Source: Rickettsiales bacterium (GTDB lineage Bacteria > Pseudomonadota > Alphaproteobacteria > Rickettsiales > UBA1997). Taken from it: a stretch of DNA of 46,348 nucleotides. The stretch spans positions 1 to 46,348 of the forward strand of contig JAITOR010000026.1 in NCBI GenBank assembly GCA_031289855.1, given 5' to 3'. The position numbers were made by a program, and so were the translations under genes. This document shows, piece after piece, positions 12,829 to 12,898 of the stretch. Every line of letters starts with the position of its first letter. Within the stretch, counting starts at the first letter, position 1. The notes beneath the pieces were generated by a model. The model did not search any database. It had not been told where the DNA came from and saw nothing but the letters and a program-made list of their open reading frames with translations.

Positions 12829-12869
12829 ATTTTAAATTAAGTATTAACAATTTATAAATAAAATTAAAT

Positions 12870-12898
12870 TTGACTTTAAAGGGGGGGGGGGGTAATAT
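12870..12898 (+). promoter_or_regulatory. Predicted cas9 promoter with a G12 homopolymer in the -35/-10 spacer
   Basis: TTGACT (12870-12875), a 17-nt spacer made of ttaaa plus G12 (12881-12892), then TAATAT (12893-12898). It lies about 23 nt upstream of the cas9 ATG. Confidence 0.6.

Follow-up and report, generated by a model that had tools for sequence, protein, structure and literature searches.

Slipped-strand control of transcription through a homopolymer in the promoter spacer has been established for porA of Neisseria meningitidis and TP0126 of Treponema pallidum (PMC7864442), so that an earlier note on the DNA described here was right to treat such tracts as a known route to phase variation. 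In both systems, a poly-G tract separates the -35 and -10 boxes, a spacing of 17 nucleotides (nt) is optimal, and slippage of the tract is expected to grade or abolish transcription (PMC7864442). The same layout was found upstream of a cas9 gene in a stretch of 46,348 nt from a Rickettsiales bacterium (contig JAITOR010000026.1 of GenBank assembly GCA_031289855.1, positions 1 to 46,348 of the forward strand; the whole stretch is hereafter called the window), where twelve consecutive G residues (G12) occupy most of the spacer of a predicted promoter. On balance, we are inclined to regard G12 as the spacer of a sigma-70-type promoter that serves cas9 and the co-transcribed cas2 and works as a porA-type switch. 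The structural part of this reading, namely a homopolymer within the predicted cas9 promoter spacer, is well supported in silico, and phase-variable or rheostat expression of Cas9 is plausible.

The tract stands out strongly from its surroundings. The window has a G+C content of 30.0%, and the near-absence of G and C runs reported earlier for this genome holds throughout: besides G12, the longest G run measures 5 nt and the longest C run 6 nt, with no other run above 6. Runs of twelve or more G residues are expected 2.6e-6 times with independent bases and 9e-5 times under a first-order Markov model. In about 64 kb of DNA from AT-rich relatives, no G or C run exceeds 6 nt. The tract is uninterrupted and, at 12 nt, lies well beyond the length at which homopolymers slip, for which about 8 nt is sufficient. 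It also exists as read. An independently assembled Logan contig (L002, run SRR14710898) corresponds to positions 9470-13717 of the window with 100% identity and no gaps, and likewise carries G12. It is very unlikely that the tract or its exact length is an artefact of sequencing or assembly. Long homopolymers are miscounted by Illumina reads, and the same read set is probably behind both assemblies; however, two different assemblers are concordant over 4.2 kb without gaps, and the paralogous promoter module described below matches both flanks of the tract. Moreover, the tract must be real because a dark-cycle poly-G artefact, which extends to the end of the read, is impossible between two matching unique flanks. 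The exact tract length keeps the usual uncertainty of short-read homopolymers.

Both boxes and the tract lie at the coordinates given for them before, and the spacer (12876-12892) between TTGACT (12870-12875) and TAATAT (12893-12898) again measured 17 nt; the promoter reads AAATTTGACTTTAAA-GGGGGGGGGGGG-TAATAT. The proposal that the tract falls within the cas9 promoter spacer gained support from the distribution of the promoter motif, from the copies of its upstream module and from the distance to the start codon. The strict promoter motif, defined as TTGAC[AT]-N16-18-TAnnnT, has nine sites in the window, every one of them within non-coding DNA, which makes up 8.5% of the window. At six of the nine sites, a start codon on the correct strand follows the end of the -10 box after 9-30 nt (coaC 21, NMO 21, cas9 23, gltX 30 and two further genes 9 and 15 nt). 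Since the motif is confined to non-coding DNA and mostly lies near start codons, it appears to mark real promoters in this organism. The 23 nt between the end of the cas9 -10 box and ATG 12921 compare with 9-30 nt for the other promoters in the window, and such short leaders fit the general lack of Shine-Dalgarno sites, which are missing from most window genes, a GGAG-type site being present in some. The 14-mer AATTTGACTTTAAA that contains the -35 box occurs exactly three times in the window versus 0.01 times expected from shuffled sequences. Its copies, at 12867-12880 on the plus strand and at 17476-17463 and 17728-17715 on the minus strand, are each located upstream of a unit of the CRISPR locus. 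Promoter scans identified no promoter-like site upstream of 12870 on the plus strand of the intergenic region. Taken together, the tract very probably sits in the spacer of the actual cas9 promoter, as judged from these sequence features.

The other two copies of the module belong to promoters that we designate Z' and Y' (Table 1). Z' precedes a single CRISPR repeat and cas1, and Y' precedes a putative RNA resembling a trans-activating CRISPR RNA (tracrRNA). We compared the three promoter copies by anchored pairwise alignment and by exact coordinates. All three have TAATA after the spacer, and the place taken by G12 in the cas9 copy is occupied by AT-rich sequence in Z' (ATCTAATCTG) and Y' (ATCTAATATAG). 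The exact coordinates thereby confirm that both paralogues have ordinary spacers and that, of the three copies, only that of cas9 has the tract; because both spacers are AT-rich, the tract is best viewed as a derived feature of this copy. It should be noted that the cas9 leader and first codons (12900-12935, GTGGTTATTAAATTTAAATTTATGAATATGGAAAAT) align loosely with the CRISPR repeat, with GGTT..TTA at the start and ATGG.AAAAT at the end, and the region upstream of cas9 may be a duplicate of the whole promoter-plus-repeat module.

Table 1. Coordinates of the promoter, CRISPR-locus and repeat features in the window
Feature	Position	Strand	Details
G12 homopolymer	12881-12892	+	12 of the 17 spacer positions of the predicted cas9 promoter
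Shared 14-nt module AATTTGACTTTAAA, includes -35 box TTGACT 12870-12875	12867-12880	+	Promoter scan and 14-mer count
-10 box TAATAT	12893-12898	+	9 of 12 consensus matches with the 17-nt spacer
cas9, type II-C, 1055 residues	12921-16088	+	TIGR01865, 595.6 bits, full length
cas2	16089-16466	+	TIGR01573, 55 bits; ATG directly after the cas9 stop
cas1	16461-17342	-	TIGR03639 cas1_NMENI, 260 bits; convergent with cas9-cas2
Single CRISPR repeat GTTTTAGAGTCTTTTTTTTATGCCTTAAATGGCAAAAT	17400-17437	-	Single copy, immediately behind Z', upstream of cas1
Promoter Z': AAATTTGACTTTAAA, then ATCTAATCTG (17462-17453), then TAATAAT	17446-17477	-	Scan: TTGACT-16-AATAAT, TG upstream
Putative tracrRNA, natural single-guide form	17485-17648	-	From promoter Y'; fold and duplex energy
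Promoter Y': TAATTTGACTTTAAA, then ATCTAATATAG (17714-17704), then TAATAAT	17697-17729	-	Scan: TTGACT-17-AATAAT
NMO promoter TTGACT-17-TATATT, divergent	12800-12828	-	At least 53 nt from the tract; promoter scan
NMO-family gene, upstream of and divergent from cas9	11370-12779	-	
(TC)14.5 repeat	289-317		Signal-peptide coding region of an outer-membrane beta-barrel gene at 240-1260

Whether the tract is non-coding depends on where translation of cas9 begins, and the available annotations differ: the gene starts at ATG 12921 according to JGI (1055 residues) and at GTG 12900 according to NCBI (1062 residues, MVIKFKFMNM), and a further in-frame ATG is present at 12927. In 24 homologues, the initiator methionine is separated from the conserved tyrosine of YILGLD by 2-8 residues, and by exactly 2 in 19 of them. 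The corresponding numbers would be 6 for ATG 12921, 4 for ATG 12927, 13 for GTG 12900 and 23 for TTG 12870. A start at ATG 12921 or 12927 is thus favoured by comparison with the homologues, and either would leave the tract non-coding and at least 28 nt away from the start codon. These distances bear on two alternative roles of the tract. If transcription came from further upstream, G12 would be part of the 5' untranslated region and could act as a Shine-Dalgarno-like G run 7 nt before GTG 12900, in which case a change of its length would hardly alter expression. This is quite unlikely. The NCBI product does begin at this GTG, and GGAG-type sites are used by some genes in the window; however, the 13 residues before the tyrosine exceed the range seen in the homologues, the plus strand lacks a promoter-like site further upstream in the intergenic region, and most window genes have no Shine-Dalgarno site and start 9-30 nt behind a -10 box. 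Nor does the tract belong to an RNA structure, as the fold of 12860-12990 is not more stable than that of shuffled sequences (z = +1.08), and a search of this region against Rfam gave nothing meaningful. Alternatively, the switch could be translational, with a start at TTG 12870 and G12 coding for GGGG in the cas9 frame, so that frameshifts would turn the gene off. The frame is indeed open from TTG 12870 via the tract into cas9 and reads MTLKGGGGNIVVIKFKFMNMENN, but the 17-residue extension ahead of the ATG-12921 start puts 23 residues before the tyrosine, a length seen in 0 of the 24 homologues; TTGACT is also present in both non-coding paralogues and recurs at further promoters in the window, and neither a promoter nor a ribosome-binding site is found upstream. 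Such translational phase variation is therefore extremely unlikely.

The gene behind this promoter appears to encode an intact nuclease. The alignment shows no variation in the catalytic columns of Cas9 (D12, E504, H595, N618, H742 and D745), and the RuvC and HNH motifs are intact. Within cas9, we also observed a perfect in-frame tandem duplication of 24 nt (14048-14095, FKDKEVNN/FKDKEVNK) and a 36-nt duplication with 81% identity (15480-15551, KIVDEKIKEELK/KLGENKIKEELK). Since the cas2 ATG adjoins the cas9 stop codon, cas2 is probably co-transcribed with cas9, in line with what had been supposed from the sequence before. In contrast, cas1 has its own promoter Z' and would for this reason not be under the G tract.

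According to the switch mechanism that we propose, slipped-strand mispairing during replication would add or remove G residues in the spacer of the cas9 promoter, and their number would set how far the -35 and -10 boxes lie apart. With G12, they are separated by the optimal 17 nt; G11 and G13 would change this to 16 and 18 nt and weaken transcription, and tracts of G10 or shorter, or of G14 or longer, would permit little or no cas9 transcription. The levels of Cas9 and Cas2 would then vary among cells in a heritable yet reversible manner, and the ordinary promoter copies would keep the expression of cas1, of the single repeat and of the tracrRNA-like RNA constitutive. We infer that length changes in the tract are frequent enough to be useful, that cas9 expression tracks this length and that selection maintains the arrangement.

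A second simple repeat in the same window has a bearing on how this mechanism is judged. The gene at 240-1260 matches the outer-membrane beta-barrel family PF13505 (1.8e-14) and the Opacity family PF02462 (4.4e-5), and has a (TC)14.5 repeat in its signal-peptide coding region. The frame from ATG 240, as assembled, runs into a stop immediately behind the repeat, whereas the addition of one TC unit or the removal of two units yields a protein of 340 or 338 residues beginning MIIIKGKRRAFWPTLVFSLSLS...SGANA. To judge from its sequence, this is the classical layout of translational phase variation, assembled in the OFF state. The Logan contig L088 ends at 291, the k-mer node at which an allele one TC unit shorter would branch, and this end is compatible with length heterogeneity among the reads and equally with stutter of the polymerase chain reaction. 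Neisseria opa genes also have a repeat in the signal-peptide coding region, although their unit is the pentamer CTCTT, whereas that of the Opacity-like gene is a dinucleotide. The TC repeat suggests that the organism uses repeat-based switching, and its presence in the window raises the prior expectation that the G tract is a switch as well.

The tract may also be a genuine part of the promoter spacer without being a selected switch, either as a recent slippage expansion that is neutral or mildly harmful, or as a static spacer whose G+C-rich sequence keeps cas9 transcription below that from the AT-rich paralogous promoters. Such an origin is rather unlikely, yet it deserves more weight than the other alternatives. 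The tract is confined to one lineage, length polymorphism was not seen in two assemblies from one sample, and the locus, being without an array, may be under relaxed selection. Furthermore, the perfect 24-nt duplication in cas9 is a recent slippage-type event with no obvious function. On the other hand, the length of the tract gives exactly the optimal spacer, and the window also contains the TC repeat with its phase-variation layout. In a genome of 30% GC, an uninterrupted G12 is either recent or maintained, as it should decay fast unless recent or selected. It is established knowledge that G12 should slip whatever its origin, and some length-dependent heterogeneity of expression would therefore be hard to avoid, provided that the promoter has been called correctly.

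The locus was not recovered from any further genome, metagenome contig or sample in the searches made here. The organism is uncultured and AT-rich, and its MnmG is closest to proteins of metagenome-assembled genomes (MAGs) labelled as Rickettsiales (77% and 71% identity). Among 5.8 billion proteins, none exceeds 50% identity to the Cas9 of this organism, and the best match again comes from a Rickettsiales-labelled MAG. Exact-protein look-ups with Cas9 (from ATG 12921), the TTG-12870 frame and the outer-membrane protein gave no match, and those with Cas1, the NMO-family protein and UvrA returned only Logan contigs of run SRR14710898. The accession of this run turned up in no paper when sample metadata were sought in the literature. 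A scan of the GTDB genomes with Cas9 revealed no copy of this locus, and none was found in the JGI metagenomes, either with a DNA pattern allowing a spacer of 0-30 nt or with Cas9.

Several of these and other observations weigh against a switch. The species was found in one sample only, where both assemblies have G12 without visible length variation, and the Logan contig crosses the tract unbroken, which may result from bubble popping by the assembler. The three relatives at 42-50% Cas9 identity have no tract upstream of cas9, and in all, 0 of 5 AT-rich Cas9 relatives have one. In the DNA retrieved for the AT-rich relatives L003-L006, G or C runs longer than 6 nt are absent both upstream of cas9 and elsewhere, as they are from the two MnmG-neighbour contigs (L086 and L087). 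The earlier note had proposed a comparison of tract length among related genomes, and this check turned out negative, as no relative at 40-50% Cas9 identity has the tract. Among 83 cas9 loci, a long G run near the start was found in one (L030, G10), and another locus has G7. Furthermore, the cas9 transcription start, at about 12905, is a predicted position only, the GTG 12900 start chosen by NCBI would be unusable from the TTGACT/TAATAT promoter, and promoter-like sites show no clear enrichment in 12300-18200 (43 versus 31 +/- 7 in shuffled sequences).

The G10 locus comes from a Luteimonas MAG with 64% GC, in which the run (L030, 2983-2992) ends 9 nt before the ATG of a type II-C cas9; by a rough estimate, about 0.02 such cases would be expected by chance across the set. 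Two breaks were noticed in the Logan contigs of run SRR14710898, one at 13718 within cas9, between the end of L002 (13717) and the start of L001 (13719), and one at 17475 inside promoter Z', as L001 ends at 17474. The breaks hint that the read population has variant positions or that coverage is interrupted there.

The remainder of the locus has the type II-C gene set, with cas1 and cas2 present and csn2 and cas4 absent, although a convergent cas1 next to cas9-cas2 is not the usual gene order of this type. The single repeat, which we take to resemble the type II-C repeat of Campylobacter jejuni, would form a duplex with the anti-repeat at -16.7 kcal/mol, versus -8.4 +/- 2.6 kcal/mol for shuffled sequences. 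A repeat-like stretch (17398-17367 on the minus strand) comes next with no spacer in between, and cas1 lies beyond it. No CRISPR array was detected in the window, where this is the only full repeat and some further stretches resemble it in degenerate form; an array may lie elsewhere in the genome. Outside the CRISPR genes, a 615-residue protein (19507-21354, minus strand) combines an N-terminal DnaQ-type 3'-5' exonuclease domain with a RecD2/TraA-like helicase region.

The putative tracrRNA would start with a degenerate repeat (17648-17607), connected through an 11-nt loop (17606-17596) to an anti-repeat (17595-17555), and would end in a small hairpin and a T run that finishes at about 17485. 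Repeat, loop and anti-repeat would form one long hairpin, as in a natural single-guide or long-form tracrRNA. Its fold is more stable than expected (z = -3.83), as none of 200 shuffled sequences folds equally well, and the duplex of the degenerate repeat and the anti-repeat has -24.1 kcal/mol versus -6.9 +/- 2.4 kcal/mol for shuffles. It matches no Rfam family. In silico, these features point to a tracrRNA whose anti-repeat is complementary to the repeat. Beyond its own locus, the 17-nt end of this natural guide has no match in the window when up to 3 mismatches are allowed. Four sites match the last 12 nt of the guide with one mismatch, none of them near the cas9 promoter. One of these sites, with 11 of 12 bases matching TTTTCCATTCTT, lies at 5186-5197 on the minus strand, in codons 2-5 of ftsH within the divergent rlmE-ftsH region; this match is probably due to chance, given four one-mismatch sites versus about two expected.

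In Streptococcus pyogenes, the natural single-guide RNA tracr-L reportedly makes Cas9 repress its own promoter. A similar autoregulation is not supported here, as neither the cas9 promoter and its surroundings nor the rest of the window yielded a target for the 5' segment of the guide. A further and quite improbable extension of the switch is that, at this locus without an array, Cas9 would act mainly together with the natural single-guide-like RNA (17648-17485, minus strand) as a regulator of genes of the organism itself, so that G12 would switch this regulon on and off at random and the locus would be a CRISPR-based counterpart of a phasevarion.

If the tract varies and controls transcription, cas9 would be the first CRISPR nuclease that we could find under phase variation by a simple sequence repeat. 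The earlier note knew of no established stochastic switching of such a nuclease through a promoter repeat, and we likewise found no report of a cas9 gene switched by a simple sequence repeat in the literature searched, and CRISPR goes unmentioned in a 2025 review on phase variation. The bet-hedging logic of restriction-modification would then extend to adaptive immunity, and the population would always include cells with high, low and no Cas9, balancing autoimmunity and blocked gene uptake against defence. As the tract is found at cas9-cas2 alone and the other units have an ordinary promoter, its effect can be singled out by comparing the three copies. Because the promoter belongs to the sigma-70 type, the prediction is testable with reporters in Escherichia coli even though the organism is uncultured.

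Among the described systems, the phasevarions of Haemophilus, Neisseria and Helicobacter are likewise systems for defence or the targeting of nucleic acids that have come under a simple sequence repeat, and both they and the cas9 tract could have population-level consequences for bet-hedging and regulation (PMC11868660). The phasevarion repeats, however, are usually located within the coding sequence of mod or hsdS and act through frameshifts or domain shuffling, whereas the cas9 repeat lies in a promoter spacer, and the phasevarions are restriction-modification systems, whereas the present one is CRISPR-Cas9. The tracr-L system resembles the locus in that cas9 transcription is controlled at the promoter, and the locus also has a repeat-loop-anti-repeat hairpin; tracr-L, however, belongs to type II-A and provides RNA-guided feedback, whereas the control proposed for this type II-C locus would operate stochastically, in cis, by way of DNA length. 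The likeness to porA and TP0126 is one of sequence layout. The locus differs from them in the target, which is a CRISPR nuclease operon instead of an outer-membrane protein, and in the host, an uncultured Rickettsiales-like bacterium. We thus consider the tract a credible candidate for a porA-type promoter-spacer repeat, with cas9 as a new class of target gene for a known switch.
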